A DNA stretch of 29,511 nucleotides, taken from the IMG/VR virus record IMGVR_UViG_2882707223_000001. The stretch is one strand, 5' to 3'. The position numbers and the translations under genes were made by a program. A model generated the notes under the pieces. The model worked only from the letters and a program-made list of their open reading frames with translations, searched no databases and was not told where the DNA came from. This DNA comes from an uncultured virus (IMG/VR IMGVR_UViG_2882707223_000001). Lineage: Duplodnaviria; Heunggongvirae; Uroviricota; Caudoviricetes. Every line of letters starts with the position of its first letter. The first letter of the stretch is position 1. Positions 8,878 to 29,020 of this stretch are shown here, piece by piece.

Positions 8878-8897
8878 TTATTAAACTATAAAAACTA

Positions 8898-10454: not shown

Positions 10455-10545
10455 AAAATTATAGGGATTATTTTTATAAAAGATAATCCCTTTTTATAAA
10501 AAAAGCACAATAAAACACAATAATTATAGAAAGGAAGAAAAAACT

Positions 10546-11622: not shown

Positions 11623-11706
11623 AAATAATAGTCTTTACTGCTTAGTGCTGTAAAGGCTATTTTTGATCTGTTGACATTTAAGAGTAAAAAATTATATAAT
11701 TATAAA

Positions 11707-11874
11707 TGACAGAGAAAGAACCCTGTTAAAAAAGTTTTTTATGAAGTTTTTACACTTCTATAAGTTTATTGTGTTTTAGACTTTTTACATTATAAAAAAT
11801 TTTACTCTAAAATATTTATGAATAAAAAAATGTTATTCTATATTATAAGCCGTATAAAAGCGGCTTATTTTTTT
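11707..11874 (+). ncRNA. Candidate sRNA 2
   Basis: TTGACA(11671)-18-TATAAT(11695), no credible ORF, terminator ATAAGCCG-tataaaag-CGGCTTAT-TTTTT. Confidence 0.5.
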
Positions 11875-12057
11875 GCTTTTTTGTAACTGCTTATTATTTT
11901 ATACATATGTTATATGTAATCTATACATAACTTATGGTGTATAAAATATGTATAAAAAGCCTTAAATGCGGTAGGATTGTTTTTAAATTTCTTCAATGAG
12001 TGTTTACCCTCTAAAAGTATTTTAAAATCATTCTGGCGTATTTTTTATAATAAGCAT

Positions 12058-12093
12058 AAGAAAAAGCCCTTATTTTAAAAGGGCTTTTGTCTT
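12058..12093 (-). terminator. Terminator downstream of the recombinase (possibly bidirectional)
   Basis: AAAAGCCCTT...AAGGGCTTTT stem. Confidence 0.7.
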
Positions 12094-12098
12094 GGCTT

Positions 12099-13619
12099 TT
12101 AAATTTTCCAGTCAATTTCTATATTTCCAGATTCGTCAAGTAATATCTTATTTACCAGAATTTTTAACAATGCCTGTTTTTCTTCTGTTGCTAAATCTTT
12201 ATAAATTGTATCTTTTGCTGTTATAGTTTCTGCGCCTGTTCTTTGTAAAACTTTTAAAACTCTATACTCAATTTTATCAGATGGGGCTATATCTGCCTGA
12301 ATCTTATAATTTATTTCTGCGAGTTGTTGCTCTCTTTCCTCTATTGCTTTTGTTATAGTTTCGGCTATTGCGGGGTTTACAGCAAGAGTGGATATAAGGT
12401 TATTTATTTCAGTCTGTAATGAATCGGCTTGCTTTTGGTATTCTTCAAGTTTTGCTTTCCATTCAAGTTGGTTTTTTGTAAAATCATCTAAATACTTTTG
12501 AATTTCAATGGCAACTTTTTCTTGTATTCCTTCCAGTCTTACGCCTTTAAAACTTGTATCACATATGCCTCTTAGTTCGCTTCTACCTACACAAGACATT
12601 GAACCATATTTCCCTTTTATTTTGATAGCCCGTCCACACTTAGCACATTTTACAAGTCCAGACAATTCAGCAAATTTGCCCTTTGGCGTATTATCTCGTG
12701 AGTATGATGTATTTTGGCTTAACCGTTCCTGAACCATTAAAAAGGTGCGGCTGTCAATATATCCCTTCCAGTTGGTTATATAAATTTTCCAGTCGGTGGG
12801 CGGGTTTTGTAAGGTTTTCTCTCCTGATTGATCGGTTTTGTTTAAAATACAACACGCCCGCTCTCCATTCCATTCGCTAGAATCATTTAAAAAATTTGCT
12901 CCTAAACTTTTATAATAATTATATAGTTTTTGGTCTGCTATTGCGTATATAGGGTTTGATAAAATATTATTTATGGCTGTTGCTGTCTTAGATATTCCTT
13001 TTTTATCATATAAAAATTTTGTTAATTTGTGTAATGATGTATTGCTGTCAAAAGCATATTTTTTATATAAAAGTTCTATAATTTCTTTGTCTGCTGTTGG
13101 CTTTAATGTGCTTAATCCGTTTTTATCTTTTGCTAATTTAAAAGCATATGGGGTTTTCCCGCCTAACCAACGCCCGTCTGTTTCTGCTCTGGCATAATAA
13201 GAATCTTTTACTCTTAGCTGTATATTTTCTCGTTCCATTTGGGCAAAATTGATTAAAATACCTATCAATAACCGCCCTATGCTTGATGATGTATCAAATT
13301 CATCTTTTACAGAAACAAAATCACAATGATGTTTATTCATAAAATCATATAAATTATAGAAATCAACAACATTGCGGCTTATACGGTCTAGCTTATAAAC
13401 TATAACTTTGTCAATCCTGTTGTTTTCAATTTCTTCCATAAGGTTTTTAAGTTGTGGGCGTGCTGTATTTTTTCCAGAATACCCTCTATCCTCATAAACT
13501 TTTATATCTGCGCCTTTTTCCCTTCTCTCAACTTCTGCTCTACAAGTTTCGATCTGTGTATCAATACTTAAACTGTCCTCTTTAAAAACGCTCTGCCGTG
13601 CATATATTGCTATTGTCAT
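12099..13619 (-). CDS. Large serine recombinase (integrase)
   Basis: IAIYARQS catalytic Ser, DRGYSG, VYKLDRISR, recombinase domain, zinc ribbon CAKCG...C...C, coiled coil; GGAGGG RBS. Confidence 0.95.
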   Translation of the reverse strand: MTIAIYARQSVFKEDSLSIDTQIETCRAEVERREKGADIKVYEDRGYSGKNTARPQLKNLMEEIENNRIDKVIVYKLDRISRNVVDFYNLYDFMNKHHCDFVSVKDEFDTSSSIGRLLIGILINFAQMERENIQLRVKDSYYARAETDGRWLGGKTPYAFKLAKDKNGLSTLKPTADKEIIELLYKKYAFDSNTSLHKLTKFLYDKKGISKTATAINNILSNPIYAIADQKLYNYYKSLGANFLNDSSEWNGERACCILNKTDQSGEKTLQNPPTDWKIYITNWKGYIDSRTFLMVQERLSQNTSYSRDNTPKGKFAELSGLVKCAKCGRAIKIKGKYGSMSCVGRSELRGICDTSFKGVRLEGIQEKVAIEIQKYLDDFTKNQLEWKAKLEEYQKQADSLQTEINNLISTLAVNPAIAETITKAIEEREQQLAEINYKIQADIAPSDKIEYRVLKVLQRTGAETITAKDTIYKDLATEEKQALLKILVNKILLDESGNIEIDWKI

Positions 13620-13666
13620 ATGAAAAGCCCTCCTTTTGTGGTATAGTCGTGTTATCTACTATAACT

Positions 13667-13695
13667 ATTATATCAGAAAAGTTGACTTTTGACAA
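13667..13695 (-). promoter_or_regulatory. Recombinase promoter at the element boundary
   Basis: TTGTCA (13695-13690), 17 bp, TGnTATAAT (13672-13667). Confidence 0.7.
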
Positions 13696-15028
13696 TATCG
13701 GCTATCTGCTGAAGACCATGATGGATAAGATGATGTGGCAGGCGTATTACAGCTGCTTTGATGAATACCTTAAATCAGAGCTGCAGATGGATTACACGAT
13801 GGCAACCCGCTTCATCAAGGCGTGCGAGAAATACTCCGCCAAGGGAAACGGCATGGAGATCGAGGAAAAATATGAAGGATACTCCCAGGCGGTTCTGATC
13901 GAGATGCTGAACATGCCGCCGGAACTGGAAGAAAAGATAGCTCCGAGTATGACCGTGAAGCAGGTGAGGGAGATAAAGCGGCAGGCAAAACAGAAAGATA
14001 AGCCTCTGAAAGAGTCAGAAGAACCAGCTGATGGAGATATAGTCATAGACGGGGAATACAGAGAGATCGATATACCGGAATCAGAAAATATTGTTCCGGA
14101 GAAAGTTGCGACGTCGCAACCTGAGGATCCTGGCGAGATTCATGATGAAAGATGGTTCGTGGAACAGTATGTTAAATTTGAACCGAAGGAATCTGAAGAA
14201 TTGATGTGCATTTGTCTCCGGGAGAAAGACAATTCTGACAGGGCGGATGCTATTCAGAAGCACATATCCCCATATGGGTACAATTGCGGTGGAAGTTCGG
14301 AATTCGGTTTTGCTTTCCGTAGTTTCGCTGTCGGGGTGAGGCTTTATACAAAAAAAGAGAAGATCCATATGACATATAGGCGATTTGCAAAAGAGCTATG
14401 CCGGATAGCGGAAGAAACAGCGCTACCGCAATCGGCGAAATCGGCATATGGACTTGAAAAAACAGAATACCCGGAAGGGAGTTCTTTGGCGGGAGAAGGA
14501 TGCGGGCATAAGTATAATTGTTTTTTATGCGCACAGGCCTGCAGCATCAGAGGGGAAAACCGGCACTGTAGGTTTGCACCGCTTGGAGCTCCGTTTGATT
14601 GTGAAACGATGGAAATCCTTGAAAAAGGAGATCTGGAGAAAGTAGGGGATAGGTGCCAATTTGTTAATAATGATCTGGCATATCATACAGCAGGCAGCAA
14701 AGAGGCGGATCCATGCTGTAGGGTGTGTGAAGAGGTGTGTGAGTATCGATGCCAGAGATCGATTCAGGAGAATAAAACGGAGAAGCAGAGTGAATCAGAA
14801 GTTCTCCAAGAAAAAGAAATACTGGAGTCGGAAGCTGAGACAGAGAAGGATGAAGATCCCGAGCCGCTGAACGAGATGTGTGAGGTGCGTAAAATTTTGG
14901 AACAGGAGAAACAACATCTTAATGATTATCTTGAAATAGGGGGCATACCGGAAAAAACAATATTCCGCCAGAAGATTATCGTGGCAGCGCTTTCAGCGTT
15001 GGTACGTAATCTGGAAAAATCCGAATAA
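13696..15028 (+). pseudogene. 3' part of a DUF3102-like phage protein gene interrupted by element B
   Basis: Phage-like sequence starts at IGYLLK...YSCFDEYLKSELQMDYTMATRFI with no RBS or start; the first ~33 codons of the listed ORF are AT-rich element-B DNA. Confidence 0.7.
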
Positions 15029-15044: not shown

Positions 15045-15299
15045 ATGAAAAATACACTTACAGACCTTAATAATTATCTTTTTGAGCAGTTAGAGAGGCT
15101 CAACGATGATGATCTGACGGGGGAACAGCTTGACCGGGAACTGCAAAAGACTGACAGCATCGTCAAGATATCCGAGAAGATTATCGAGAACGGAGAACTG
15201 GCTTTTAAGACCATGAAACATTTGGATGAATTCGGATACCATCCGGACAAGAGCATCAGATCAGTACCCCCGATGCTTACCACGGAAGGGAAGTGGTGA
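15045..15299 (+). CDS. Small phage protein upstream of the HNH gene
   Basis: MKNTLTDLNNYLFEQLERLND...; GGGAG RBS. Confidence 0.8.
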   Translation: MKNTLTDLNNYLFEQLERLNDDDLTGEQLDRELQKTDSIVKISEKIIENGELAFKTMKHLDEFGYHPDKSIRSVPPMLTTEGKW

Positions 15300-16132
15300 A
15301 AATGCCTGTATATAGATATTCGCAAGAGGTTCATGATTTCGTAAAGAAATGGAGTCTGAAGCTCCGGGACGAAGATTTGGCTGAAGCATGCAACAGTGAA
15401 CTGGGGACGCATTTCACAGCGCAGTCCATGAAAGCCTTCAGAGGAAATCATGGGTACAGGAATGGCAAGAAGCAATGGACAAAAGAGGAGTATTGGAAGT
15501 ATCAGAAAAAGTATCCCCAGGGGATGTACGAATTTGTCAGGGATAATTCCTGGGGCGTGAGTTCCAAAGAGATGGCAGAGATGGTGAATGAAAAGTTCGG
15601 CACCAGTTTCACGCAGACGATGATGAAGCAGTTCCGGCAAAGGCACGGCATTAAATCCGGCTGTACAGGCTGGTATCAGAAGGGACACCCACCGGGTACG
15701 AAGGGCAGAAAGCAGGAGGACTATATAAAAGATCCAGATGCACTCGAGAGGGCTAAGGCTACGCGCTTCAAAAAAGGTGACAGGCCAGCAAACGAACTGC
15801 CTGTCGGTGCGATCGTAGTCAATTCTGCCGGCTATAAGCTTCGGAAAAAGCAGATGGAGGGGAGTCTCTGGGAACGTTGGGAGTTTCTTCACAGGGCGGT
15901 TTGGGAAGAGCACAACGGGCCGATACCGGAAGGCGTGGTCGTTATTTTTAAAGATAATGACAAGCTGAATTGTGATATTGAAAATCTGATGCTGATCACG
16001 AAGGGTGAAAGCTGCGCATTGACGAGACTGGGTTACCGCTTTGAGGATCCGGATCTGACGCAGGCAGGATTGGGGATCGTTCGGCTGAAGCAGACAGTAG
16101 CAAAGAAAAAGAAGAAAGGGAAGAAGGCATGA
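15293..16132 (+). CDS. HNH endonuclease-like phage protein
   Basis: HRAVWEEHNGPIPEGVVVIFKDNDKLNCDIENLMLI with N-terminal repeats. Confidence 0.85.
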   Translation: MVKMPVYRYSQEVHDFVKKWSLKLRDEDLAEACNSELGTHFTAQSMKAFRGNHGYRNGKKQWTKEEYWKYQKKYPQGMYEFVRDNSWGVSSKEMAEMVNEKFGTSFTQTMMKQFRQRHGIKSGCTGWYQKGHPPGTKGRKQEDYIKDPDALERAKATRFKKGDRPANELPVGAIVVNSAGYKLRKKQMEGSLWERWEFLHRAVWEEHNGPIPEGVVVIFKDNDKLNCDIENLMLITKGESCALTRLGYRFEDPDLTQAGLGIVRLKQTVAKKKKKGKKA

Positions 16133-16214
16133 ACAGAATAGAAAAGGCGGTAGATGAAATAGCAGCCTATGTGTGATAAGGTTTGCGGACATAGAGCGGA
16201 AGAATGGAGGGGTA
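16129..16214 (+). pseudogene. Frameshifted remnant of a small phage gene
   Basis: ATGA-coupled start MNRIEKAVDEIAAYV* continues as CDKVCGHR in another frame at a GTGTG run. Confidence 0.4.
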
Positions 16215-16634
16215 GTGTTGGACAAAAAGGTTTTATCGGATTACATAGATATCTGTGAGCTGATCAGCGAGATGGAGGAAGAGATACAGAATCTGCGAAA
16301 AAAAAAAATAGCGCATGACAAAGTAACTGGAAGCAACCCGGAGTTCCCATATGAGCAGAGAAGCTTTCATGTATCGGGGATAATTGAAGCGGATCTGGAC
16401 AGTCAAAAGCTGAAAAGTGAACTGGAGCTGTTGAAAGAGAGAAAATACCAGGCGGAAAAAATGAAAGCGGAGATCGACAGGTGGATGAAGACCATACCGG
16501 CGAGGATGCAGCGGATTATTCGGATGAAATATTTTGAACGGAGAACGTGGGATGAAGTTGCGATTAAGCTGGGAAAAACGGCTACGGCGGATAATACGAG
16601 AAAAGAATTTGAAAGATTTTTGCAAAAAAAATAA
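16215..16634 (+). CDS. RinA/ArpU-like late transcriptional activator
   Basis: C-terminal sigma-r4-like HTH (QRIIRMKYFERRTWDEVAIKLG), last gene before the packaging module; start at 16215 or 16218 after GGAGGG. Confidence 0.75.
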   Translation: MLDKKVLSDYIDICELISEMEEEIQNLRKKKIAHDKVTGSNPEFPYEQRSFHVSGIIEADLDSQKLKSELELLKERKYQAEKMKAEIDRWMKTIPARMQRIIRMKYFERRTWDEVAIKLGKTATADNTRKEFERFLQKK

Positions 16635-16795: not shown

Positions 16796-16849
16796 ATACG
16801 CATTAAATACACATTTACTATTGACAGATGTGTAAAAAATGTGTATCAT
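16796..16849 (+). promoter_or_regulatory. hicAB promoter with inverted operator boxes
   Basis: TTGACA(16821)-17-TATCAT; ATACGCAT, ATACACAT, ATGTGTAA and ATGTGTAT placed symmetrically around the -35. Confidence 0.7.
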
Positions 16850-16869
16850 ATATACATAAGGAGGACATA

Positions 16870-17040
16870 ATGAAACAGAGAGACTTAATAAAGCGGTTGG
16901 AAAAAGGTGGATTTGTACTTAAGAGGCATGGAAGCGATCATGATATATATGTTAGAGGCGAGGATGAGGAGCAGGTACCGAGACACCGGGAAGTAAACGA
17001 AAGATTAGCAAAAGCCATATTGAGAAAGTGGGGATTGTAA
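16870..17040 (+). CDS. hicA: HicA toxin
   Basis: MKQRDLIKRLEKGGFVLKRHGSDHDIY...VPRH; AGGAGG RBS; start reassigned from 16828. Confidence 0.9.
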   Translation: MKQRDLIKRLEKGGFVLKRHGSDHDIYVRGEDEEQVPRHREVNERLAKAILRKWGL

Positions 17041-17095
17041 AATCCCCTCTTTCCCAATAAATGTATAGAGCGGAAAAGAAAGAAGAGGGAATAAA

Positions 17096-17518
17096 ATGAA
17101 AAACGTATATCCTGTAATATTTACACCATTAAGAGACGAAAAGGATACCGTACTGGTTGAGGTTCCGGATTTAGAAATACTGACGGAAGGTTATGGTATG
17201 GTAAATGCTGTTTATATGGCAAGGGATGCTATCGGATTAAAAGGAATAACGCGGGAGGATGAGGGAAAGGGCATACCAGCTCCCAGAGCATTAAATGACA
17301 TTGACGTATCAAAAGGAACATTTGCGGAAGATGGGAAAGGATATGTTTCGCTGGTGGATATAGACTTTGTGGAGTATCGGCGCAGGGTAGATAATAAAAC
17401 AGTGAGAAGAAATGTTACACTTCCGAACTGGCTGAATCAGGAAGCGGAAAAAGCGCACATCAATGTATCCAGAGTTTTACAGGAAGCACTGATGGCAAAA
17501 CTGAATGTGTCAAAGTAA
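17096..17518 (+). CDS. hicB: HicB antitoxin
   Basis: YPVIF...VEVPDL...TEG...MARDAI and C-terminal RHH VRRNVTLPNWLN...INVSRVLQEAL. Confidence 0.92.
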   Translation: MKNVYPVIFTPLRDEKDTVLVEVPDLEILTEGYGMVNAVYMARDAIGLKGITREDEGKGIPAPRALNDIDVSKGTFAEDGKGYVSLVDIDFVEYRRRVDNKTVRRNVTLPNWLNQEAEKAHINVSRVLQEALMAKLNVSK

Positions 17519-17625: not shown

Positions 17626-17787
17626 ATGGCGAGACCAAGGAGCCCCGGCAGAGACAAAGCAAGGCAGCTCTGGCTGGATAGCGGGAAGAGCCGCCTGCTG
17701 AAGAGTATTGCAGAGGAACTGCAGGTATCAGAGGAACAGGTCAGAAAATGGAAAAATCAGGATAAATGGGATTTAGTAACGTTATGA
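17626..17787 (+). pseudogene. Truncated terminase small subunit (N-terminal HTH only, 53 aa)
   Basis: MARPRSPGRDKARQLW...LKSIAEELQVSEEQVRKWKNQDKW then stop at the junction; AGGAGG RBS. Confidence 0.85.
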
Positions 17788-18127
17788 AGCCTGCGGAGAG
17801 CTGGAGGCACAGACAAAACGAAACTCTAAGGTAAAGACTGGGCAGACAAAGGGTTCTTACGTATATGTTGTCGATGAGGCGGAGCTGAAAGGGTATGTCG
17901 GCTCAAACTATGAAAATGCCATCTGGGAGGAGTTCGGCACTGGTGAATATGCTTTGAATGGCGATGGGCGCAAAGGAGGCTGGCATTATCAGGACGAAAT
18001 GGGTGGGTGGCACTTCACGAGAGGAAAGAAGCCGCGGAGACCGCTTTTTAAAGCATTTACTTTACTCAAAGGCAGGATTACTCAGATGGCAGAGCAGATA
18101 ATAAGAGAAAGGCTGGACACAGAATGA
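17783..18127 (+). pseudogene. 5'-truncated HK97 gp10-family neck/tail-completion gene
   Basis: YEACGELEAQTKRNSKVKTGQTKGS...VGSNYENAIWEEFGTG...TRGKKPRRPL; in-frame stop at 17777 and no start codon; ATGA overlap with the next gene. Confidence 0.85.
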
Positions 18128-18519
18128 GCGCAGATGTACTGAACCTCATAAAGAATGCTATGGAAGCCCTGGGGCTGAAATATGGTTTTATGGAGTATAA
18201 GGTAAATGCCGGTGAGGCGCTGCCGGCTACTTACTTTGTCGGAGAATATCATGAACTGGAATCTGACGGTGAGGCCGGCGAAGAGGATACGGTATTTATA
18301 TTGACCGGTTTTTCACGGGAAAAATGGATCCGACTGGAGGAAACAAAGGAGATGATAAAAAAATATTTCCCCCGTAACAGTGGGAGGGTGATAGCAGCCG
18401 GATCCGATTCAACGGTCGCCCTCTTTTATGGGAACAGCCTCCCCCTGCCTGTGGAGGACGATGAACTGAAAAAAATGCAGATAAATCTAGTTATTAAAGA
18501 ATGGAAGGTGGAACAATGA
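18124..18519 (+). CDS. Tail terminator-like protein
   Basis: Size and position between gp10 and the major tail protein; YFVGEY motif. Confidence 0.7.
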   Translation: MSADVLNLIKNAMEALGLKYGFMEYKVNAGEALPATYFVGEYHELESDGEAGEEDTVFILTGFSREKWIRLEETKEMIKKYFPRNSGRVIAAGSDSTVALFYGNSLPLPVEDDELKKMQINLVIKEWKVEQ

Positions 18520-19259
18520 GAAAATCAGGTATTAATAATGACACGCCGAATGACTTCCTGTTGGGAGCAGGTGTTGTGTTTAAAAATTTTAAATACGTGT
18601 ATGAAAAGTATGAAGCTGAGGAGACGCTGGTGGCGGAGGATATTAAATTGAGCCAGATAGAGAACAATGTCTCTTTTATCGGCGTAAAAGACGGTTACAC
18701 ACCGGCGGTGGGGGATTTTGTCACAGGCGCGTGGGACGATTCTGAAAAGAATGTGCTCGGTGCTACCAATGGAGGGAATAAACTTTCTATTGTTCCGGAG
18801 ATCACACCCATTGAAGTGGATGGTGCGGTAGTAGAGATCAAAGGACTCAATCAGAAAACGGGGGAAACCGGGACACTGGAGGTGAACCTTGCACAGCATA
18901 CGGTTGAATCGCTGAAGCGTGCGATCGTAGGAAAAGAGGTCGAGAGTTTGATTCCGGGGTATAAGCAAATCCAGACGAAGTCGTTGATCGAATTGTCGGA
19001 TTATCTGGATAATATTGCTTATGTCGGCAGTATGACGGACGGGACGGAGATCATAGCAATCATGGAAAATGCGATCTGCTCGTCGGGGCTTGAATTAGAC
19101 TCGAAAAATAAGGAGACATCTGTTGTCAAGACCACGTTCAAGGCTACGGCTGATTTTAAGAGCGGCGTATATGATACACTGCCCATCTATATTTTCTATC
19201 CGGATAAGGAAAAACAGGAGACACAGACAAAGAAAATATATAAGATCGTGGAAGGGTAA
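18516..19259 (+). CDS. Major tail (tube) protein
   Basis: TPNDFLLGAG, LGATNGG, DYLDNIAYVG, MENAIC motifs and position; start reassigned from 18501. Confidence 0.8.
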   Translation: MRKSGINNDTPNDFLLGAGVVFKNFKYVYEKYEAEETLVAEDIKLSQIENNVSFIGVKDGYTPAVGDFVTGAWDDSEKNVLGATNGGNKLSIVPEITPIEVDGAVVEIKGLNQKTGETGTLEVNLAQHTVESLKRAIVGKEVESLIPGYKQIQTKSLIELSDYLDNIAYVGSMTDGTEIIAIMENAICSSGLELDSKNKETSVVKTTFKATADFKSGVYDTLPIYIFYPDKEKQETQTKKIYKIVEG

Positions 19260-19269
19260 GAGGTGGATC

Positions 19270-19704
19270 ATGAAGAAAATGGAAATAGGAGATACACTGC
19301 AGGATTCTGTAGCAGAAAAAGCGTGTGAACAAAAAACAGAGTCAAACATTGAACGCCAGTATACACTGCGCAGGCTGAAAGACTCCGACCTGTTCCCACT
19401 TCTTAAAATCTTGAAAAAAATAGGCATCAGGGATTGCAAAGAGGCCTTCATTCAAGTGGCTTCCGGGGAAAAAACTCTGAAACAAATAGGGATCATGGCT
19501 ACTTTCGATATAGCAGACATTCTGATCGGGAATCTGGCGAAGGTCGAAAATGAAACCTATGAAATGTGGTCAGACATATCAGGCATTCCGGCGGACGATA
19601 TAAGAGAGATGGAATTCGGCACACTGCCGTTGATGATCATGGACACTTTTTCAGAGGCAAGAAATACGAGTTTTTTCAGGGTGCTCTCCAGATTTCTCTC
19701 ATAG
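19270..19704 (+). CDS. Tail assembly chaperone (G-like)
   Basis: Between major tail and tape measure genes; GAGGTG RBS before ATG 19270. Confidence 0.75.
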   Translation: MKKMEIGDTLQDSVAEKACEQKTESNIERQYTLRRLKDSDLFPLLKILKKIGIRDCKEAFIQVASGEKTLKQIGIMATFDIADILIGNLAKVENETYEMWSDISGIPADDIREMEFGTLPLMIMDTFSEARNTSFFRVLSRFLS

Positions 19705-20033
19705 GAGAATTTGAATTCATGGACTTGTTGTATTCCAGATACGCAAGTCCTGTGGATTTCATGAATGTGTATATTGCACAGGGAAGATTTGGAGAATTTG
19801 TAGCTAAAATCTTTGAAATGGATGTGAGGCGTAAAAAAGAAGCAATTCGAAAAGAAGATGATAACATGCTGTGGCAGGCGTATGTCCATAGTGTGACGGA
19901 TAAGACGTTTCAGGATTGGAAAGATGGACTGATTCAAGAGAAGGAACCAGTATCATACCGTATGTCGGACAGACAGGTTAATGCTGTGAAACGGCAGACA
20001 AGAGAGATCCTGAGCAGAATATCTCCGGCGTAA
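19671..20033 (+). CDS. Tail assembly chaperone extension (T-like), reached by -1 frameshift
   Basis: Slippery heptamer T TTT TTC at 19671-19677; the -1 frame is open to 20033. Confidence 0.75.
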   Translation, partial: FFQGALQISLIGEFEFMDLLYSRYASPVDFMNVYIAQGRFGEFVAKIFEMDVRRKKEAIRKEDDNMLWQAYVHSVTDKTFQDWKDGLIQEKEPVSYRMSDRQVNAVKRQTREILSRISPA

Positions 20034-20054
20034 GAATCGGGAGGAACATATACG

Positions 20055-22739
20055 ATGGAACTTTTTAAACTGTTTGGAACAATCACAGTTAAAAATACGG
20101 AGGCGAACAGTGCGATCGATGAGACCACTGATAAGGCACAGTCTTTCTCACAAAAATTATCGGATAAATTTGAGGATGTCGGCACAAAAGCCACGAATCT
20201 GGGGACAAAGATGAGCCTGGGGTTAACAGCGCCTATCACACTGATCGGAACAAAAGCGATTCAGGCAACCGCAGATTTTGAGTCCGCAATGTCGGAAGTA
20301 GGGGCTATTTCAGGCGCTACGGGTGATGATCTTATAGCCCTGAGGAATAAAGCGGAAGAGATGGGGAAGACAACCAAGTTCTCAGCTTCTGAATCTGCGG
20401 AGGCTCTGAAATATATGGCGATGGCAGGATGGAAGACGGAAGATATGTTGGATGGCCTGGAAGGCATTATGAACCTTGCGGCGGCTTCAGGGGAAAATCT
20501 GGGGACCACATCCGATATCGTGACGGATGCGCTTACTGCTTTTGGGATGAAAGCTTCTGACAGCGGGCATTTTGCAGATGTATTGGCGCAGGCATCCTCA
20601 TCGGCGAATACTAATGTGGGCGAAATGGGAGAGGCATTTAAGTATGTAGCACCGGTGGCGGGAGCTTTGGGATATAGCATTGAGGATGTATCGCTGGCTA
20701 TTGGATTGATGTCTAACGGAAGTGTACATGCATCTCAGGCAGGTACAGCTTTACGAGGATCATTAAGCAGACTGGTAAAGCCTACCGAAGATATGATAAG
20801 TACAATGGTAAATCTGGGGTTGGCCACAGAAGAAACTACCAATGTTGTTGACAGTGGAAAGCTCCAGAAGGCCCAGACGAAAGTCGAAAATAAAACTATC
20901 GATATGCAGAAAGCGCAGATCAAATATAATGATGCTGTCGCCAAATACGGCGTAAATTCTTCACAGGCTCAGACGGCGGCATTAAACCTTGAAAAAGCGC
21001 AGAATAATCTGGAGGCCGCTGTTTACGATCTGAATGTAGTACAGGAAGGAGAAACGGAGACTTTAGGCATCACAAATAACCTTCTCGTGGACAGTGAAGG
21101 AAATACGAAGTCGCTTCGAGAAGTAATATTGGCGTTACGCACAGCATTTTCCGGATTGACAGAGGAAGAGCAGGCTCAGGCTGCTACTACATTATTTGGC
21201 CAGGAAGCAATGGCAGGAATGCTCAATATCATTAATGCGGGTGAAGATGATTTTAATAAATTTGCAGATGCTATCGATAGTTCAGAAGGCAGAGCAAAGG
21301 AAATGTCTGACATTATGAAAGACAATCTGTCTGGGCAGTTAACAGAGCTTGGATCAAAGTTAGAAGGTCTCGCTATACAGTTTGTAACGTTGATCATGCC
21401 TTACCTGAAACAGGGTGTGGAATGGCTTTCCAAAGTGTGCGACTGGATATCGGGACTGGATGACGGGACAAAAAAGATGATTATAACAGCGGCCGCACTT
21501 CTGGCCGCCGCAGGTCCAGTGCTTATCTTTGTAGGAAAAATGGCCACCGGAATCGGTTCAGTCATCAGCATCGGGAGCAAGCTGATCGGGGGCATTACTA
21601 CTCTTATCCCGATCATCAGTTCCATCACTGCGCCTGTTGCCCTTGTAATAGCTGCGATAGCGGCACTGGTGGCCATAGGGGTTACCCTGTATAAAAACTG
21701 GGATACGATAAAAGAAAAAGCGGGAGAACTGAAGGAGAAAGTAGTCAGTAAAGTAACAGAGATGAAAGAAAAAGCGATAGAAAAATTTACAAATCTGAAA
21801 GAGGAGGCATCGGAGAAAGTAAAAAATTTGAAGGAAGATGCGGTTGCCGGATTTACTGAATTAAAAGAAAGAGCTGAAAGTCGGATAGAGGGTTTGAGGG
21901 CAAGGGCAGCAGAAAAATTTGGGAAAATGAAAGAAGATGCATCGGAAAAGGTGAGAAATCTGAAAGAAAACGCTATATCTGGATTTACTGAGTTGAAAGA
22001 AAAAGCGGAAACCCGGATAGAAGGACTGAGGGCGAGTTCAGCGGCAAAATTCACGCAGATGAAGGAGGATGCATCGGAAAAGGTGAAAAATCTGAAAGAA
22101 AACGCCGTGTCTAAGTTCCAGGAGTTAAAAGATAGAGCGTCTGAAAAAATCACTTCCCTGAAAAATAAAGGAATTGCTGATTTTGAAGCCTTGAGATCCG
22201 GTGCAGTCCTAAAGTTTGAAAATTTGAGATCCGGTGTGACACAGAAACTGGATGCAGTAAAGAATTTTACATCTAATACTGTTCGGAAGCTGAAAGAATT
22301 CTTTAACTTTGACTGGAAGCTGCCGAGAATCAAGCTTCCGCATTTTAGTATCAGCGGAAAGTTTTCACTTAACCCGCCGTCAATTCCGAAATTCAGTGTG
22401 GACTGGTATAGAAGAGCGATGGATAATCCTCTGTTGATGGAAAAGCCGACAGCGTTTGGAATCAATGCGAGAGGGCAGATTATGGCGGGCGGCGAAGCCG
22501 GGAGTGAAGTGGTGAGCGGGACGCAGACGCTGATGAAGATGATCTCTGCGGCGGTCGCAGAAAACAATGAACGGCTCTATACGATCCTGAATCAATTATA
22601 TGATCTGTTAAGCGAATGCCTTCCGGCGCTGGAAAAGAGGCAGTTGGTCCTGGACTCTGGAGTGCTGGTAGGCGAACTTGCCCGGCCGATGAATGAGGAG
22701 CTCGGCAGAATTACATATATGAGGGGGAGGCGGAATTAG
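20055..22739 (+). CDS. Tape measure protein (TP901-type core)
   Basis: ADFESAMSEVGAISGATG, TKFSASESAEALKYMAMAGW, hydrophobic block, 11-aa periodic repeats, AGGEAGSE. Confidence 0.93.
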   Translation: MELFKLFGTITVKNTEANSAIDETTDKAQSFSQKLSDKFEDVGTKATNLGTKMSLGLTAPITLIGTKAIQATADFESAMSEVGAISGATGDDLIALRNKAEEMGKTTKFSASESAEALKYMAMAGWKTEDMLDGLEGIMNLAAASGENLGTTSDIVTDALTAFGMKASDSGHFADVLAQASSSANTNVGEMGEAFKYVAPVAGALGYSIEDVSLAIGLMSNGSVHASQAGTALRGSLSRLVKPTEDMISTMVNLGLATEETTNVVDSGKLQKAQTKVENKTIDMQKAQIKYNDAVAKYGVNSSQAQTAALNLEKAQNNLEAAVYDLNVVQEGETETLGITNNLLVDSEGNTKSLREVILALRTAFSGLTEEEQAQAATTLFGQEAMAGMLNIINAGEDDFNKFADAIDSSEGRAKEMSDIMKDNLSGQLTELGSKLEGLAIQFVTLIMPYLKQGVEWLSKVCDWISGLDDGTKKMIITAAALLAAAGPVLIFVGKMATGIGSVISIGSKLIGGITTLIPIISSITAPVALVIAAIAALVAIGVTLYKNWDTIKEKAGELKEKVVSKVTEMKEKAIEKFTNLKEEASEKVKNLKEDAVAGFTELKERAESRIEGLRARAAEKFGKMKEDASEKVRNLKENAISGFTELKEKAETRIEGLRASSAAKFTQMKEDASEKVKNLKENAVSKFQELKDRASEKITSLKNKGIADFEALRSGAVLKFENLRSGVTQKLDAVKNFTSNTVRKLKEFFNFDWKLPRIKLPHFSISGKFSLNPPSIPKFSVDWYRRAMDNPLLMEKPTAFGINARGQIMAGGEAGSEVVSGTQTLMKMISAAVAENNERLYTILNQLYDLLSECLPALEKRQLVLDSGVLVGELARPMNEELGRITYMRGRRN

Positions 22740-22741
22740 AA

Positions 22742-23365
22742 ATGTATGGCGCAGTATTCGGGGATAAGCATACAAAAGAGGACTATGGCGCTGTCATGAA
22801 TTATGTCAGGATAACACCGCCGGCTGTAAAAGAGAATTATGTGGATATTGCCGGCGGAAATTCCTCCATCGATCTGACAGAGGCGGTTGGCGGGGTGGTA
22901 TTTGAAGATGGAGAGATCGATTTTAAATTTACCCTGTTTGATGCGGGGTGCAAAGAAAAGATGAAAAATGATCTGCATGGACGGCGCATGAAAATCATTT
23001 TGGAAAGGGAGCCGGAATTTTACTATGAAGGCCGCATATCCGTCATCAGCGAGAAACAGACGGGAAATATTTATGAATTATGCATGAAAGCAAAGGTAAA
23101 ACCTTATAAGCTGGATCGAGTAATGGTTCATGAAGAGGAGATAAAAGGTGAGAAAGAGATTATCCTGTTCAGCGACAGGATGCCGGTCATGCCGCTCATA
23201 ACAGTTGAGGGAAATATTGCTGTCAGTTATGAGGGCATCCGTTTTGCGCTGGAAGCCGGAGTATATGAAATACCTGAGATTACCTTTCAGGACGGACCAA
23301 ACAGGCTGAAGGTATCTGGAAGGGGGAAAATCCGACTGGAATACAGAAAAGGACAACTGATATGA
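22742..23365 (+). CDS. Distal tail protein (Dit)
   Basis: Follows the tape measure gene; PPAVKENYVDIAGGNSSIDLTE, LHGRR motifs. Confidence 0.8.
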   Translation: MYGAVFGDKHTKEDYGAVMNYVRITPPAVKENYVDIAGGNSSIDLTEAVGGVVFEDGEIDFKFTLFDAGCKEKMKNDLHGRRMKIILEREPEFYYEGRISVISEKQTGNIYELCMKAKVKPYKLDRVMVHEEEIKGEKEIILFSDRMPVMPLITVEGNIAVSYEGIRFALEAGVYEIPEITFQDGPNRLKVSGRGKIRLEYRKGQLI

Positions 23366-25005
23366 TAATCATAAAAAACGGTGAGAGACAGATATATCAT
23401 CCACGCAACCCTAATCTGGCGTTGATCAATCCGAAATTGACACTGGAGGATAATGGGGCCGGAAGCCTTACTTTTAAAATATATGACAGCAATCTGAATT
23501 ACCACACGATCAGAAAGCTCTATCCACTCATATCAGTAATCAGAGATGGCAGGACATTATTTAAAGGAAGGGTAATTTCTGATAAGAAAGACTTTTACAA
23601 TGGAAAATCTGTGGAAGTGGAAGGAAAATTGACTTTTTTAAATGATTCCTATATGGAACCTTTTTCTTTCTCGGGAAGTCCGTCGGAATTGTTCAGGATG
23701 ATTATCGAAAATCATAATGCGCAGGTGATGGACTGGCAGCAATTCAAAATAGGAGTCGTGACAGTCGTCGATAACAACGATTATATTGTCAGGAGCAGTG
23801 AGAATGTTATAAATTCCTGGAATGCCTTGAAGGATAAATGTTTTAAGTCATCTCTGGGAGGGCATATCAGAATAAGGTATGAAGAGGATGGAGATTATAT
23901 TGACTGGCTTTCAGATTATGATGTTGTGTCAAAGCAGAGCATTGAGTTTGCAAAAAATATGATAGATATGTCTTCGGAGCTGGATGCGACAGAGACTTAT
24001 ACGGCGATCAGGCCAGTTGGAGCGGAGGTAGATGGTGTTAAGGTTAATATTTCTTCTGTGAACGGTGGGAAGACCTATATTATCAATGAGGAAAAAGCGA
24101 CTGAATATGGGATTATATTTGCACCGGAGAATGAATCTACCTGGGAAGACGTGACACTGCCACAGAACCTTCTAAAAAAGGCGAAAGAAAAGCTTTTTCA
24201 TTCATTTGTCACATTGAATGAGACATATGAGATCAAAGCGGTTGATCTGCACCTGACGGATGCAAGCATTGAAGCCCTGGATATCTGTGAATATGTTCCG
24301 GTGGTCAGCCGTCCGCATGGGATAAACGGGAATTACCTGTTGAGCAGAGCAGATATCTATATTGCAGAACCGCAAAATTCGGTATTCTACCTGGGCTCCA
24401 GCAGACGGGTATTAAGCGATATGAATATGGCTGGAGGCGTACCGGCTGCAGTTCCAAAGAATATTAGCTCTTTTGAAAATGATGCAGGATACATATCGGA
24501 AGAAAAGACAGAAAAAATTCTGGCAGACTATTCCAAAACGATAGAGGTTGAACAGATCGTAAACGAAGCGGTATCGCAGATACCGAGTGGAGCAGACGGC
24601 AAGGATGGCCTGTCCGCTTATGAAATAGCGGTGAATAATGGCTATACCGGAAATGAAAGCGAATGGCTGGAATCCCTGAAAGGGATGAAGGGAGAAGATG
24701 GAGCACCTGGGTGGGATGGTAAGGATGGAATAGATGGTGTTGATGGAGAAACGCCTTTCATAGGTGATAATGGGAACTGGTTTATCGGTGGTGAGGATAC
24801 AGGAAAGCCTTCCCGCGGAGAAAAAGGTGAGAAGGGGGATAAAGGTGATGCCGGTTCTGCTGGTGGATCATCAGGTGGGTTGGGAATGTATGCATTTGAA
24901 ATTCGGGAAGATGGGCACTTGTGGGTGATGTCAGAGTCGGAGATGCAGTCAGAGAATTTTGGCATTAATGATGATGGACATCTTATTTATACAGTGGAGG
25001 GATAA
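23362..25005 (+). CDS. Tal/tail spike protein with collagen-like C-terminus
   Basis: AGSLTF...LFKGRV...EGKLTFLNDS; GLSAYEIAV...EWLESLKG; Gly-X-Y repeats; IGDNGNWFIGGEDTG. Confidence 0.8.
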   Translation: MIIIKNGERQIYHPRNPNLALINPKLTLEDNGAGSLTFKIYDSNLNYHTIRKLYPLISVIRDGRTLFKGRVISDKKDFYNGKSVEVEGKLTFLNDSYMEPFSFSGSPSELFRMIIENHNAQVMDWQQFKIGVVTVVDNNDYIVRSSENVINSWNALKDKCFKSSLGGHIRIRYEEDGDYIDWLSDYDVVSKQSIEFAKNMIDMSSELDATETYTAIRPVGAEVDGVKVNISSVNGGKTYIINEEKATEYGIIFAPENESTWEDVTLPQNLLKKAKEKLFHSFVTLNETYEIKAVDLHLTDASIEALDICEYVPVVSRPHGINGNYLLSRADIYIAEPQNSVFYLGSSRRVLSDMNMAGGVPAAVPKNISSFENDAGYISEEKTEKILADYSKTIEVEQIVNEAVSQIPSGADGKDGLSAYEIAVNNGYTGNESEWLESLKGMKGEDGAPGWDGKDGIDGVDGETPFIGDNGNWFIGGEDTGKPSRGEKGEKGDKGDAGSAGGSSGGLGMYAFEIREDGHLWVMSESEMQSENFGINDDGHLIYTVEG

Positions 25006-25008
25006 TTT

Positions 25009-25662
25009 ATGGCCCAGGCAGATTTGGGAAAGGTGCGACTGACAGATGCGGAACTGTCAGAAAAAATAATTCAAACAAACGGAGGCGTAAGGTTTGGAAA
25101 GGATGCAGATGGAAAACCGGGATATGTGGTAACGGATGCGGAAACAGGTGCTGATACAGTGATCCCTTTTAGCAATGGATCCTCTGGGGGGATTCCAGTA
25201 CAAGGATCTATTTGCTTTGCTGGGTCAAAAATACATTCTGTTTCAGGGGGTTCAGATTATTTGGCGTTTGTTTTATTCGATGATCCAATAGAGATTTCGC
25301 AAATTAAAGAAATTAAAACAATAACACAAATTTCTAATTGGTATAGAATAAGCAGTGGATATACTACTTCGCTGTCAAGGATGATGTATATTTTTTTGTA
25401 TATAGAAAATAATGATGGTCAATTTCAGCAGTTTCGATATTCTTTTCCAGTTATAAATGTATCTGGGACGGGAAGCGGGGTTGCCAATGAGAAAGAAATG
25501 ATTATACCACCATCGTTAATATCACAATATAAGAATTTGATAGGAATAGGTTGTGATTTTTATCAATATGGAGGTGGATCTTCTACTGGATATTGGTTCA
25601 CATCTCAAATTGGAAATGCAGCAGATCCTCATGGATCGGAAATGAAATATTTTATAAGCTGA
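25009..25662 (+). CDS. Putative receptor-binding/tail-tip protein
   Basis: N-terminal RFGKDADGKPGY...GADTVIPF then an AT-richer beta-rich C-terminus. Confidence 0.55.
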   Translation: MAQADLGKVRLTDAELSEKIIQTNGGVRFGKDADGKPGYVVTDAETGADTVIPFSNGSSGGIPVQGSICFAGSKIHSVSGGSDYLAFVLFDDPIEISQIKEIKTITQISNWYRISSGYTTSLSRMMYIFLYIENNDGQFQQFRYSFPVINVSGTGSGVANEKEMIIPPSLISQYKNLIGIGCDFYQYGGGSSTGYWFTSQIGNAADPHGSEMKYFIS

Positions 25663-25694
25663 TAACTTATATTAAGACAGAACGGAGAATAAGT

Positions 25695-26495
25695 ATGGCA
25701 CAGATAAAATTATTGCTGGAAAAACAGCTTTTGACAATTCAGAATCAGGATATCATTGCTTCAGGTGACAGCAACTTTGATTCTTGTAAATTTATATTTG
25801 ATAAAACATGGGAAGGATTCACGAAAACAGGTGTATTTTATCAGGACAAAGCCAACGTACAGTATGCAGTGCTGGGAAATAATGATACCTGTATGATTCC
25901 TGCGGCGGCCATGGCGAGAGCCGGACGGATGTATATCGGAGTATTTGGCATGAAAGATACTGCGGTAGTTACATCAACGCTGTGCATCATTGATATAAAA
26001 GAAGGTGCTATTTCCGGCGAAAATGTGTCCATGGAGCCGACAGACGATATCTTTTTAGCGATTATTGCACAGTATCAGAGAATCGCAGATCTGATGAGCA
26101 GATACGAGGAGACAGCGGAGCAGTTTAATATCACGATGGCGGAGCAAAACAGCATTCTGGAGACGTTAAATGCTTTTGATGTGACAGAGATCAGTCAGAG
26201 ACTCGATCTGATTGAGGATCGGATGATAAATTATACCAACCTGGCTAAAGAGATACAGAATCGTGAGATTATTATTCGGGACGTCCCGATTAAGTTTGTA
26301 AATAAAGTCTGCAGGATAGCGAGTGATGTTATTACAGAGAATTCACTTTGTGATATCTATTTCGATGAATATTCTTTTGAGATTGCATCGAAAGCGCTTA
26401 TCATACCGGTATCGCATGTTGGGTACATAGAATTGACGAGTTCTATTGATATTCTGGATGAATTGAATGCAAATATACTTGTCAGGAGGAATTGA
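25695..26495 (+). CDS. BppU-like baseplate/fibre adaptor protein
   Basis: CKFIFDKTWEGFTKTGVF...CMIP...IGVFG, EPTDDIFLAII followed by coiled coil; start reassigned from 25593. Confidence 0.6.
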   Translation: MAQIKLLLEKQLLTIQNQDIIASGDSNFDSCKFIFDKTWEGFTKTGVFYQDKANVQYAVLGNNDTCMIPAAAMARAGRMYIGVFGMKDTAVVTSTLCIIDIKEGAISGENVSMEPTDDIFLAIIAQYQRIADLMSRYEETAEQFNITMAEQNSILETLNAFDVTEISQRLDLIEDRMINYTNLAKEIQNREIIIRDVPIKFVNKVCRIASDVITENSLCDIYFDEYSFEIASKALIIPVSHVGYIELTSSIDILDELNANILVRRN

Positions 26496-26497
26496 TT

Positions 26498-27691
26498 ATG
26501 CTGGGAAAAACGAATATAACAACATTATCAGAAGGCGCCATTGTAACTGAAATTGAAGATTATAACTGGATACAGGTACAATCAGGTGTTTTTGCTGATT
26601 TTGTAGCGGCAATTTTTAAAAATGGATATCTGGTGGCCATTACTGCGGATGGTACTGTTGTTTATACAACGGATGGAGAAGCATGGCAGACACATATGCT
26701 GGAATATGAAAATTGCAGGCTGAATGATATTGACTGGGATGGGAATGATTTTGTATTGGCGGGTGGGTATATTAATAATGGAAAAAAAACCGGGTTAATA
26801 CTTAGAACAGCAAACTTTGAGGAGTATGTAGAGTTAAATACAGAAAATAGCAGCGATTCAGAGACCAACTATGATACTGAATATCATGCAATATATCCGT
26901 CTAATGGAAAGTACCTTGTTATAGCGGAAAGAATAGAGAAAACTTACAGGTATGTATATGCATATGCCGGAGATTTAGTAAATGCATGGGACAGAATGAA
27001 TAGATTACACGCTAAAAATGAAACAAATGGAGTGGCTTATTATGTAGAAAGTGTAACAGTCGCAAAAAATTCCAGCGAAATGTTGCTGCATATCAATTAT
27101 TATGCACAGACAAATACAACTACTACCTGGTATAATGAAATACAAAAAATAGACAATAAAGGAACATTTACTCATTTGCATAATATAAAATCGGGTAATA
27201 TACCTGTTATGAATGTCTATGAGTGTAAGGATGCCCTGTTTTACAGTTCTATGATGTCAACGGACGATTATAAAATAGTAAAAGTTTTGCCTTCCAATGA
27301 AACGAACATATTAAGTACCGGGCAGAATTTTTTCTTTAAAGATGGGGTATATTTTAACGAATGTCAGCTCTTCATTAATAGTCATGAAATGCTGATTGTC
27401 AAAAAGAGGGAGAGTATTTCAGACAAAACGTTAGATGATTTGATTGAGATCGCCCCGGAACTTACCATGAACTGTATCACAAAAGCATTCGGGCAGTTGT
27501 ACATATTCGGTAACCAGGGCGTAATACTCAAATCCAGCGTTGAAACAAATAATGAAGAGGCGATAATTGTTCAGACAATATCTGCAAAAAAGGCGCTTCA
27601 GGATGCAAAGAAATATACAGATGAGCAATATGCGGCTTTAGAGGCAAGGATTGTGGCTCTTGAAAAAGGAGGTTCCGGGAATAATGGATAA
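26498..27691 (+). CDS. Beta-propeller-like tail-associated protein
   Basis: YTTDGEAW and GNQGVILKS blade-like motifs; C-terminal AKKYTDEQYAALEARIVALE coiled coil; AGGAGG RBS. Confidence 0.55.
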   Translation: MLGKTNITTLSEGAIVTEIEDYNWIQVQSGVFADFVAAIFKNGYLVAITADGTVVYTTDGEAWQTHMLEYENCRLNDIDWDGNDFVLAGGYINNGKKTGLILRTANFEEYVELNTENSSDSETNYDTEYHAIYPSNGKYLVIAERIEKTYRYVYAYAGDLVNAWDRMNRLHAKNETNGVAYYVESVTVAKNSSEMLLHINYYAQTNTTTTWYNEIQKIDNKGTFTHLHNIKSGNIPVMNVYECKDALFYSSMMSTDDYKIVKVLPSNETNILSTGQNFFFKDGVYFNECQLFINSHEMLIVKKRESISDKTLDDLIEIAPELTMNCITKAFGQLYIFGNQGVILKSSVETNNEEAIIVQTISAKKALQDAKKYTDEQYAALEARIVALEKGGSGNNG

Positions 27692-27775
27692 TGAGAGGAC
27701 GAGAGCGATAAGGGATCCGCCTGACTGAACATTATATAAGCATGCAAAAAATATCTAAAGAAAGGAAGAGGTAGA

Positions 27776-28261
27776 ATGAAAACCGAAAACTTTGTAAAAG
27801 GGACTGTGACGGCAGTCTCTTCTTTTTTTACGTCAATTCTGGGCGTATTGGCGGTTCCGATAGGGCTGATGGTGCTCAGCAACCTGATTGATTATGGAAC
27901 GGGTCTGATGGCGTGCAAGTTCAGGAACGAAAATATCAGTTCCTATAAATCGATCAGAGGAATCATGAAGAAAGTCTGCATGTGGCTGCTGGTGGCGGTC
28001 GGGGCGATCATCGATGTACTGTTAAAATATGCATCCGAAACGATAGGCATAGCGCTTCCGTTTACATTCCTGGTGGCGTGTATCGTTGCCATATGGATCA
28101 TCTGTAATGAGATTATCAGCATCCTGGAGAATATAAAAGATATGGAAGTGGAATTGCCGGTATTTTTAGAAAAGCTTACCCAGAATATAAAATCACAGGT
28201 AGAGGAGTTGGGAGAGCAGAGACAGGGAAATATTGACACCAAGAACAGAGAGGGTGAATAA
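27776..28261 (+). CDS. Phage holin (holin_4_1-like)
   Basis: LIDYGTGL...ISSYKSIRGIMKK...NEIISILEN. Confidence 0.9.
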   Translation: MKTENFVKGTVTAVSSFFTSILGVLAVPIGLMVLSNLIDYGTGLMACKFRNENISSYKSIRGIMKKVCMWLLVAVGAIIDVLLKYASETIGIALPFTFLVACIVAIWIICNEIISILENIKDMEVELPVFLEKLTQNIKSQVEELGEQRQGNIDTKNREGE

Positions 28262-28306
28262 TTGCCCTCTTTTTATACCTGAGCAGAGGAGGCAGAAAGA
28301 AAAATT

Positions 28307-29020
28307 ATGATTATAAATATACATGCCGGGCATAATCCGGCGGGGAAGGTAGCATGCGGCGCTGTAGGGCTGATCAATGAGTCAACAGAAAACAGGCGGG
28401 TAAAAGATGAGGTGATATCCCAGCTCCGGGAACTCGGTCATATAGTCTATGACTGCACCGTGGATAACGGGAGCGGCCAGAGTGATGTGTTGAATAAAAT
28501 AGTGGCAAAATGTAACGCCCATGCGGTGGATCTGGATGTGAGCATTCATTTCAACAGTGGCGCTGCTGACAAAAAAGGAAACGGGAAGACAACAGGCGTG
28601 GAGGTTTTGGTATACTCGGCGAACAGTGAATCCAAGGGCACAGCGGAAAAAGTGTGTACTGCCGTGGCAGAGCTGGGATTTAAAAATCGCGGTGTAAAAT
28701 ACAGGCCGAATCTTCGTGTGCTGAAAAGCACAAAAGCACCGGCAATGCTGGTAGAATGCTGCTTTGTGGATGACAGGGATGATGTGGAAAAATATGATTA
28801 TTTTTCGATGGCTACTGCTATCGTGAGGGGGATCACCGGCCAGGCCGTTCAGAATGTTCCGGAAACCGCGCCGGCAGGATCCTGTGAAGAGACTGTCGTG
28901 GGACCTTCCGGAGCGCTGTACAGGGTACAGGTAGGCGCATACAGCAGGAGGGAAAATGCAGATGCAATGGCGGAAAAGCTGCGCAGAGATGGGTTTGATG
29001 CCTTCATCGTTATGGCATAA
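28307..29020 (+). CDS. N-acetylmuramoyl-L-alanine amidase (Amidase_3 + SPOR) endolysin
   Basis: HAGH, SIHFN, GVEV, AMLVECCFVD; YRVQVGAYS SPOR domain. Confidence 0.92.
   Translation: MIINIHAGHNPAGKVACGAVGLINESTENRRVKDEVISQLRELGHIVYDCTVDNGSGQSDVLNKIVAKCNAHAVDLDVSIHFNSGAADKKGNGKTTGVEVLVYSANSESKGTAEKVCTAVAELGFKNRGVKYRPNLRVLKSTKAPAMLVECCFVDDRDDVEKYDYFSMATAIVRGITGQAVQNVPETAPAGSCEETVVGPSGALYRVQVGAYSRRENADAMAEKLRRDGFDAFIVMA

Follow-up and report, generated by a model that had tools for sequence, protein, structure and literature searches.

Tail and lysis genes without a head module: a siphovirus prophage of a gut bacterium that was probably broken very recently

Non-contractile phage tails that lack a head and kill competing bacteria, the F-type tailocins, are represented by the monocins and by the F-type pyocins of Pseudomonas aeruginosa. 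The monocin locus is conserved across its species, and the F-type pyocin occupies a fixed chromosomal locus. Tail and lysis genes without a head may also be found in a defective (cryptic) prophage that has suffered an internal deletion. Both kinds of system bear on a stretch of 29,511 nucleotides from an uncultured virus (IMG/VR record IMGVR_UViG_2882707223_000001, Caudoviricetes), referred to as the window, whose positions 17626-29020 had been taken in a preliminary description, made from the sequence alone, for a head-less phage and an actual or nascent tailocin. The window corresponds to positions 91916-121426 of contig C4 of its own genome (G000), an assembly of 65 contigs that is 98% complete, with a contamination score of 5.2% and a genome GC content of 0.489. 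The late region is not an element of its own; it is the right arm of a larger prophage, whose own early genes lie at C4:31-47 kb, to the left of a 58.5-kb insert. Taken together, the stretch probably is the late arm of an ordinary temperate siphovirus prophage that was damaged very recently, and not a tailocin.

The deletion junction and its intact relatives

The gene for the terminase small subunit (terS; 17626..17787, plus strand) stops after 53 codons; the join, at 17784/17785, leads into a tail completion gene of the HK97 gp10 or SPP1 gp16.1 kind, at codon 28 of its 141. The preliminary description had thus seen the truncation and the partner gene correctly but placed the join in the middle of the latter, whereas it lies near the start. 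The open reading frame (ORF) of the stub spans 17620-17787 with a likely start ATG at 17626, and the TGA that terminates it was created by the join itself. Its product comprises the DNA-binding N-terminus and matches positions 1-49 of 67 in Pfam PF10668 (E 2.5e-23) and only positions 1-49 of 276 in phrog_1889; the full-length TerS of G003 has 229 amino acids. A DNA search covered 61 genomes (the own genome and 60 others, one genome per species). In this search, all alignments with G003 and G006, which represent two further species of the source genus, stop or begin at 17782-17785. Pairwise alignment places the two sides of the join 8,173 bases apart in G003 and 8,210 bases apart in G006, and the sole bases common to both break points are the TTA at 17782..17784, a microhomology of 3 bases. 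In G003, the intervening stretch codes for the rest of TerS, the large terminase, the portal, a minor head protein, the scaffold, the major head protein, two adaptors, and the first 27 of the 141 codons of the tail completion gene; G006 likewise has the head module between the two sides of the break. About 8.2 kb of head and packaging genes have been lost in one clean deletion, and the absence of the large terminase, portal, capsid, and head-tail adaptors noticed earlier is accounted for by this block. A search for the missing block in all 65 contigs of the own assembly did not find it and returned only partial terminase matches in an unrelated prophage on contig C22.

The tail completion gene has also lost its start codon and codons 1-27 in the deletion, and a fragment of it is left at 17783..18127 (plus strand). 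The fragment matches positions 126-210 of 239 in phrog_5, a family annotated as 'tail completion or Neck1 protein' (E 2.9e-08), which the full-length G003 protein matches at E 3.4e-11. A conserved N-terminal stretch is missing from the fragment, as an alignment shows. No ATG, GTG, or TTG occurs in its frame before 17954, and judged by this sequence the fragment is probably untranslated. Despite the phrog_5 matches, Pfam PF04883 gave no match to the gp10-like proteins at E <= 0.01. An AlphaFold model of the full-length G003 protein has a predicted local distance difference test score (pLDDT) of 75. In a fold search, its best match, and the sole match with a template modeling (TM) score above 0.25, was 9mu2_P (TM 0.70, root-mean-square deviation 2.2, E 0.042), from an entry titled 'SaPI1 neck structure with DNA, tail completion protein, and tape measure protein'. 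As in G003, the gene directly precedes the terminator and tube genes. In SPP1, phages without the tail completion protein make tails of normal length, most of which are without the terminator (PMC11099176), and for this reason the broken gene has to be counted among the tail genes. The tail and lysis genes had been described as intact; this is correct from the terminator to the amidase, with the tail completion gene as the one exception. The adjoining tail terminator (18124..18519, plus strand, 131 amino acids) is intact. Its AlphaFold model (pLDDT 88) has 13 matches in the PDB at E <= 0.001, most of them to neck, cap, or tail terminator proteins, including the monocin cap 9j1j_A and T5 p142; matches to lambda gpU and the tail cap are weaker (E 1.3e-3 to 1e-2). 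When the sequences of the completion and terminator proteins, or profiles built from them, were searched against solved structures, only chance-level matches were obtained.

Relatives that still possess the head module are present in public sequencing data. A search of sequencing runs with window positions 17300-18300 was scored by the share of sampled words; 20 of the 24 runs listed (from 12 studies) hold all or part of this segment and 16 hold at least half of the words, most of the latter being labelled as gut or mouse gut metagenome or with no named organism. Thirteen runs share 0.84 of the words. Runs labelled as RNA were represented by contigs or shared only tiny portions of the words. 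The three best (0.98, 0.97, and 0.93) belong to one study whose libraries are labelled whole-genome amplification, and one of them is run X1. Contigs of X1 and three further runs (X4, X11, and X18; four studies in all) were aligned to window positions 11500-29511, and all statements on run contigs refer to the 32 of 124 pieces that were listed. A contig of 32,356 bases from X4 matches the window at 16196-17784 with 7 differences and again at 17783-20588, and the approximately 8.16 kb between these segments make it an intact phage. Contigs from X1 match the window at 13703-17661 without any difference and at 17783-19689 with one, which amounts to 1 base in approximately 5.9 kb of flanking DNA. 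In the latter contig, position 17783 is immediately preceded by 453 letters foreign to the window, and in two X1 contigs the match ends after 17784, with subsequent letters similar to the continuation of terS in G006. Contigs from X11 and X18 also leave the window at 17784. X1 is not the same DNA as the window, because it lacks the 58.5-kb insertion and carries clustered differences at 20165-20270.

The junction itself was found in none of the 60 other genomes and in no listed contig of the four runs; its occurrence in other strains had been proposed as a check on the tailocin interpretation. A related tube protein (61-83% identity) was found in 39 IMG/VR viral loci; 35 of these extend more than 1.4 kb upstream, and head genes precede the tail genes in every one of the 35. 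An exact 29-base junction pattern had no match in the metagenome_contigs and genome_contigs collections, a result that is uninformative, as the right-flank pattern was blank there too: this 35-base pattern was absent from metagenome_contigs, genome_contigs, and viral_contigs, collections without close relatives. A megablast search of phage GenBank records with 13598-29020 gave no match either. The second check proposed earlier, purifying selection on the tail genes, was made by the ratio of nonsynonymous to synonymous substitution rates (dN/dS) against G003, which is low for the tail and lysis genes (0.04-0.27). However, the start-less completion gene fragment scores 0.063, as low as the live genes, and dN/dS was therefore rejected as a test of selection; the values reflect the history of the phage and not the time since the deletion. 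Since the flanks differ from an intact copy by about one base in approximately 5.9 kb, open frames are what neutrality predicts, and so little time has passed since the loss that neither open frames nor low dN/dS can serve as evidence of selection.

The start of terS is more widely conserved. The prophage on C22 (G000:C22:224502-245559) is another siphovirus with full head genes, and the start of its terS has 87% DNA identity to window positions 17614-17784; a conserved terS start also occurs in G003, G006, G011, and G012. Relatives also share the DNA 5' of the stub, with conservation that reaches back to 17525. Because 49 of the 53 residues of the stub match the TerS of the C22 phage, a remote side possibility is that the stub might interfere with packaging by this co-resident phage.

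Broken prophage, tailocin, or artefact

The history that we consider probable comprises two events. An illegitimate recombination between two sites sharing only TTA removed approximately 8.2 kb from terS codon 54 to codon 27 of the completion gene and, with it, the large terminase, portal, scaffold, capsid, and head-tail adaptors. In addition, the 58.5-kb serine recombinase element integrated at a TA in a phage gene and now lies between the early and late genes. Such a prophage can no longer make virions, and its tail and lysis genes would be open for want of time to decay and would not have been kept for a new use. We infer that the deletion was neutral or merely disabling. The cell may still lyse upon SOS induction and might release free tails, many of which would be uncapped because the tail completion protein of SPP1 helps to load the terminator. 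Nor has the prophage been streamlined: integrase, repressor, replication genes, the HNH endonuclease, and the terS stub are all kept. Several points weigh against this history. This assembly is the one source of the junction, 32 of 124 contig pieces were listed, and rare variants are lost from contigs; the best run shares 0.98 of the sampled words, and the search did not report which words are missing. Neutrality is deduced, and the full tail set, the terminator, the lysis pair, and an SOS-type repressor would fit a young tailocin as well. The cap is dispensable for killing by F-pyocins (bioRxiv 10.64898/2026.02.24.707460), and no tail completion protein is listed for the monocin particle as resolved (PMC11830787); a broken completion gene therefore need not prevent the formation of a killing particle.

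The alternative that this is a working or nascent F-type tailocin would imply that head-less, non-contractile tails are induced by the SOS response, released by the holin and amidase, and kill competitors bearing the receptor, and that the deletion was kept by selection. This would be in line with the open state and full length, relative to G003, of the genes for the terminator, tube, chaperones, tape measure, distal tail, hub, three tip proteins, holin, and amidase, with the S24-type repressor still encoded upstream, and with the survival of F-pyocin killing after loss of the cap noted above. A late promoter may also survive 5' of the stub, where DNA is conserved from 17525, and would now lie directly before the tail genes. 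The locus indeed has a complete non-contractile tail set and a lysis cassette and, apart from the terS stub, no head or packaging genes. It is not, however, a dedicated locus free of integration and replication genes, as integrase, replication genes, HNH endonuclease, and terS stub are retained, and a head-less form maintained across strains or species was not found in a search that covered one genome per species and contigs only. The near identity of the flanks to an intact phage left no time for selection to be recorded, the junction is missing from the other genomes and the listed run contigs, 58.5 kb of inserted DNA separate the late region from the early one, one tail gene, that for tail completion, is truncated, and free tails of an ordinary siphovirus are not known to kill cells. 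On this evidence a tailocin appears quite unlikely. The claim of an actual or nascent tailocin thus finds no support, given the near-identical intact phages in the runs and a junction seen nowhere else; the evidence favours the accompanying caveat, according to which a recent neutral deletion would give the same picture. It is very unlikely, too, that we are looking at a tailocin at birth, in which one 8.2-kb deletion has yielded free tails and a lysis cassette that already kill related gut strains and is favoured for that effect; if the strain did release killing tails, there would be a rare opportunity to observe how tailocin evolution begins in a gut anaerobe.

A junction confined to one assembly, or without support from reads, had been named in advance as grounds for abandoning the tailocin reading, and so far, in the data examined, the junction is found in this assembly only. 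The same fact raises the question of an assembly or library artefact, in which case the organism would have an intact prophage and a chimeric read or mis-join would have produced 17784/17785. Whole-genome amplification is known to make chimeras, and the three best runs come from the one study whose libraries carry that label; the junction occurs in no independent data set, near-identical X1 contigs run into other sequence at the break on both sides, and the genome has a contamination score of 5.2%. However, a mis-join would normally leave the head module as a contig of its own, which is not among the 65 contigs of this 98% complete genome, and three shared bases are too short for an assembler to join on. 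It also counts against an artefact that X1, with its differences at 20165-20270 and without the 58.5-kb insertion, is not the same DNA as the window. An artefact is therefore regarded as unlikely and the deletion as likely real, because the head module is absent from all contigs and the shared bases would be too few to mislead the assembler. As a recently broken prophage, the locus is one more defective prophage and as such routine, and it illustrates that tail and lysis genes without a head are insufficient for a tailocin call. It is also a dated example, since deletion and nested insertion are placed within the last few substitutions, with near-identical intact copies in the same type of habitat, and it shows the speed at which prophages are dismantled in gut bacteria.

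The late genes, the left arm, and the nested element

All sizeable ORFs at 13.6-29.0 kb are on the plus strand. The genes from the tail terminator through the amidase are all open, abut or overlap their neighbours, are collinear with their counterparts in G003 and G006, and match the G003 genes in length; the tight coupling of these frames and the chaperone frameshift site had been recognized correctly in the preliminary description. The major tail (tube) protein (18501..19259; phrog_885, E 1.2e-46) has 92% amino acid identity to that of G003. It is followed by the tail assembly chaperone pair (19270..20033; phrog_1021, E 6.3e-14), two overlapping frames linked by a -1 frameshift, with a canonical slippery site, T_TTT_TTC, at 19671-19677, 25 bases 5' of the stop of the first frame. 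The tape measure protein (20055..22739, 894 amino acids) matches Pfam PhageMin_Tail (E 8.7e-52) and phrog_1533 (E 5.9e-144); its gene contains an internal direct repeat at 21779-22139 (229 bases, 76% identical, offset 132 bases), and its stretch at 20.2-21.4 kb is the most variable among the four runs aligned. Downstream lie the genes for the distal tail protein (22742..23365; phrog_33, E 3.4e-07) and for a tail-associated hub protein with a collagen-like C-terminus (23362..25005; Pfam Prophage_tail, E 1.4e-20; phrog_3558, E 1.3e-101). Three tail-tip or fibre genes (25009..27691; 217, 266, and 399 amino acids) have weak PHROG matches, are collinear with G003 and G006, and include variable stretches; judged by their position, they probably encode receptor-binding proteins. 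The lysis pair consists of a holin (27776..28261; Pfam Phage_holin_4_1, E 9.2e-26) and an endolysin with an amidase and a SPOR domain (28307..29020; Pfam Amidase_3, E 7.7e-24; SPOR, E 1.2e-08).

Upstream of terS, also on the plus strand, the window contains the 3' part, from codon 38 onward, of a phrog_15077 gene cut by the 58.5-kb insertion (13703..15028; E 1.1e-34), a small phage protein of phrog_2044 (15045..15299; E 9.8e-28), the HNH endonuclease (15293..16132; Pfam HNH_3, E 5.2e-18; phrog_1891, E 7.8e-64), and a regulator resembling sigma-70 region 4 (16173..16634; phrog_36, E 8.6e-16; Pfam Sigma70_r4 below cutoff). The regulator gene has 79% DNA identity to its G003 counterpart, and its product likely acts as the late-gene activator. 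Between it and terS lies a HicA/HicB toxin-antitoxin pair (16828..17518; Pfam HicA_toxin, E 4.3e-10; HicB_lk_antitox, E 8.6e-07) with its own strong promoter-like site at 16821-16849 (11/12); a second HicB-like gene is found in the left arm of the prophage (C4:34658-35116), adjoining a Fic/DOC gene. In this part of the genome, the phage in X4 has 1,449 extra letters between 16175 and 16196 and a 375-letter replacement of 14823-15045, differences that reflect module swapping among very close relatives. The early genes of the siphovirus match the early region of G003 at 84%. They include genes for a serine integrase of 518 amino acids (C4:31359-32915) and a repressor with helix-turn-helix and S24 peptidase domains (C4:35810-36427), and, on the same contig, for a Fic protein, Sak4, a helicase, a primase, and RusA.

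The early and late genes are separated by an insert that extends from C4:47143 to about 105617, and its right-hand 13.7 kb make up window positions 1..13702. In G012 (contig C38), the phrog_15077 gene is uninterrupted and has 606 codons, of which the first 37 match C4:47027-47141 and the remainder matches the window from 13700 onward. The crossover is a TA at 13703-13704, TA is present at both joints, and the ends of the insert are inverted, with 17 of 22 positions matching. At its right end, on the minus strand, the insert encodes a large serine recombinase of 506 amino acids (12099-13619) with the Pfam domains Resolvase, Recombinase, and Zn_ribbon_recom. The insertion site is empty in G012 and X4, and contigs from X1 and X4 leave the window at 13703. 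The read depth of X1 is 0.7-2 over the serine recombinase region vs approximately 15-28 over the phage, a comparison used only jointly with the contig that diverges at 13703. A scan of the own genome that allowed up to 3 mismatches did not find the 30-letter loose end with which the X4 contig leaves the window at 13703; the own copy of the left arm, located via G012, differs from it at 7 of 30 places, counted by eye. The insert is a large serine recombinase element, its TA target lies within a siphovirus prophage gene, and, as it contains a complete myovirus-type prophage (C4:54.5-93.4 kb; with sheath, baseplate, and holin genes), it represents a prophage nested in a prophage.

The myovirus carries a diversity-generating retroelement, with Avd at C4:89576-89983 and the reverse transcriptase at C4:90294-91406, and its CHAP-CW_7-LysM endolysin is encoded at window positions 70-1482. 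An IS30-family transposase (3060-4094; phrog_4646, E 4.5e-129) is flanked by the myovirus lysis genes on one side and by low-GC cargo on the other, and a diverged IS30-family copy on C22 has about 72% identity over 480 bases. Two stretches of low GC content (0.24-0.34 vs 0.489 for the genome), at window positions 4400-11700 and at C4:48-54.3 kb, contain mostly unknown families, including a 523-amino-acid protein, a DnaJ-domain protein, a transglutaminase-like protein, and a Rep_OBD/helicase-like protein of 550 amino acids; PADLOC detected nothing credible in this cargo. A direct repeat of 177 bases (87% identical; window 11868-12044 and C4:54348-54525) occurs in two copies 49 kb apart, each directly after a low-GC stretch and a terminator-like hairpin, and may mark two related units inside the insert. 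On the other side of the prophage, the right flank (29098-29511 and C4:121.4-122.9 kb) contains an M23-peptidase fragment, a cation efflux gene, and a membrane protein gene and is syntenic with G003 and G006; thus, three species carry relatives of this phage at one chromosomal site.

Comparison with described systems

The locus shares with the monocins the same set of parts, namely the terminator or cap, tube, chaperones, tape measure, distal tail, hub, fibres, holin, and lysin, and the model of its terminator matches the monocin cap 9j1j_A. In contrast to the monocins, whose locus comprises 18 genes with regulatory, structural, and lysis functions only (PMC11830787), it retains integrase, replication, and HNH endonuclease genes and a terminase stub. 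Moreover, its head-less form occurs in no other data set examined, and the element is known from its genes alone. The F-type pyocins resemble it in having a non-contractile tail with cap, tube, tape measure, and fibres (bioRxiv 10.64898/2026.02.24.707460), and since they kill without their cap, a locus with a capping defect could still be active. However, they are lambda-like and belong to a Gram-negative host; the likeness drawn here is one of parts. The broken gene resembles the tail completion protein gene of SPP1 by its phrog_5 match, its location just ahead of the terminator and tube genes, and the fold match to the SaPI1 entry, whereas PF04883 is not matched here and the SPP1 result stems from a lytic Bacillus phage.

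The insert agrees with large serine recombinase elements and phages in its 506-amino-acid Resolvase/Recombinase/zinc-ribbon protein at one end, its imperfect inverted ends, and its 2-base crossover within a gene. It differs in that the target is a gene of another prophage and in its composite nature, consisting of a myovirus with a diversity-generating retroelement, an IS30-family transposase, and low-GC cargo. The siphovirus itself has the features of defective prophages formed by internal deletion: apart from a single clean deletion, whose endpoints fall within genes and have few bases in common, it is collinear with intact relatives, its other genes are intact, and integrase and repressor are kept. 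Its setting is that of a prophage, with a left arm carrying these two genes and a right host flank syntenic with G003 and G006. What sets it apart from other cryptic prophages is that the deletion happens to take exactly the head and packaging block, and that the prophage is also split by another integrated element.

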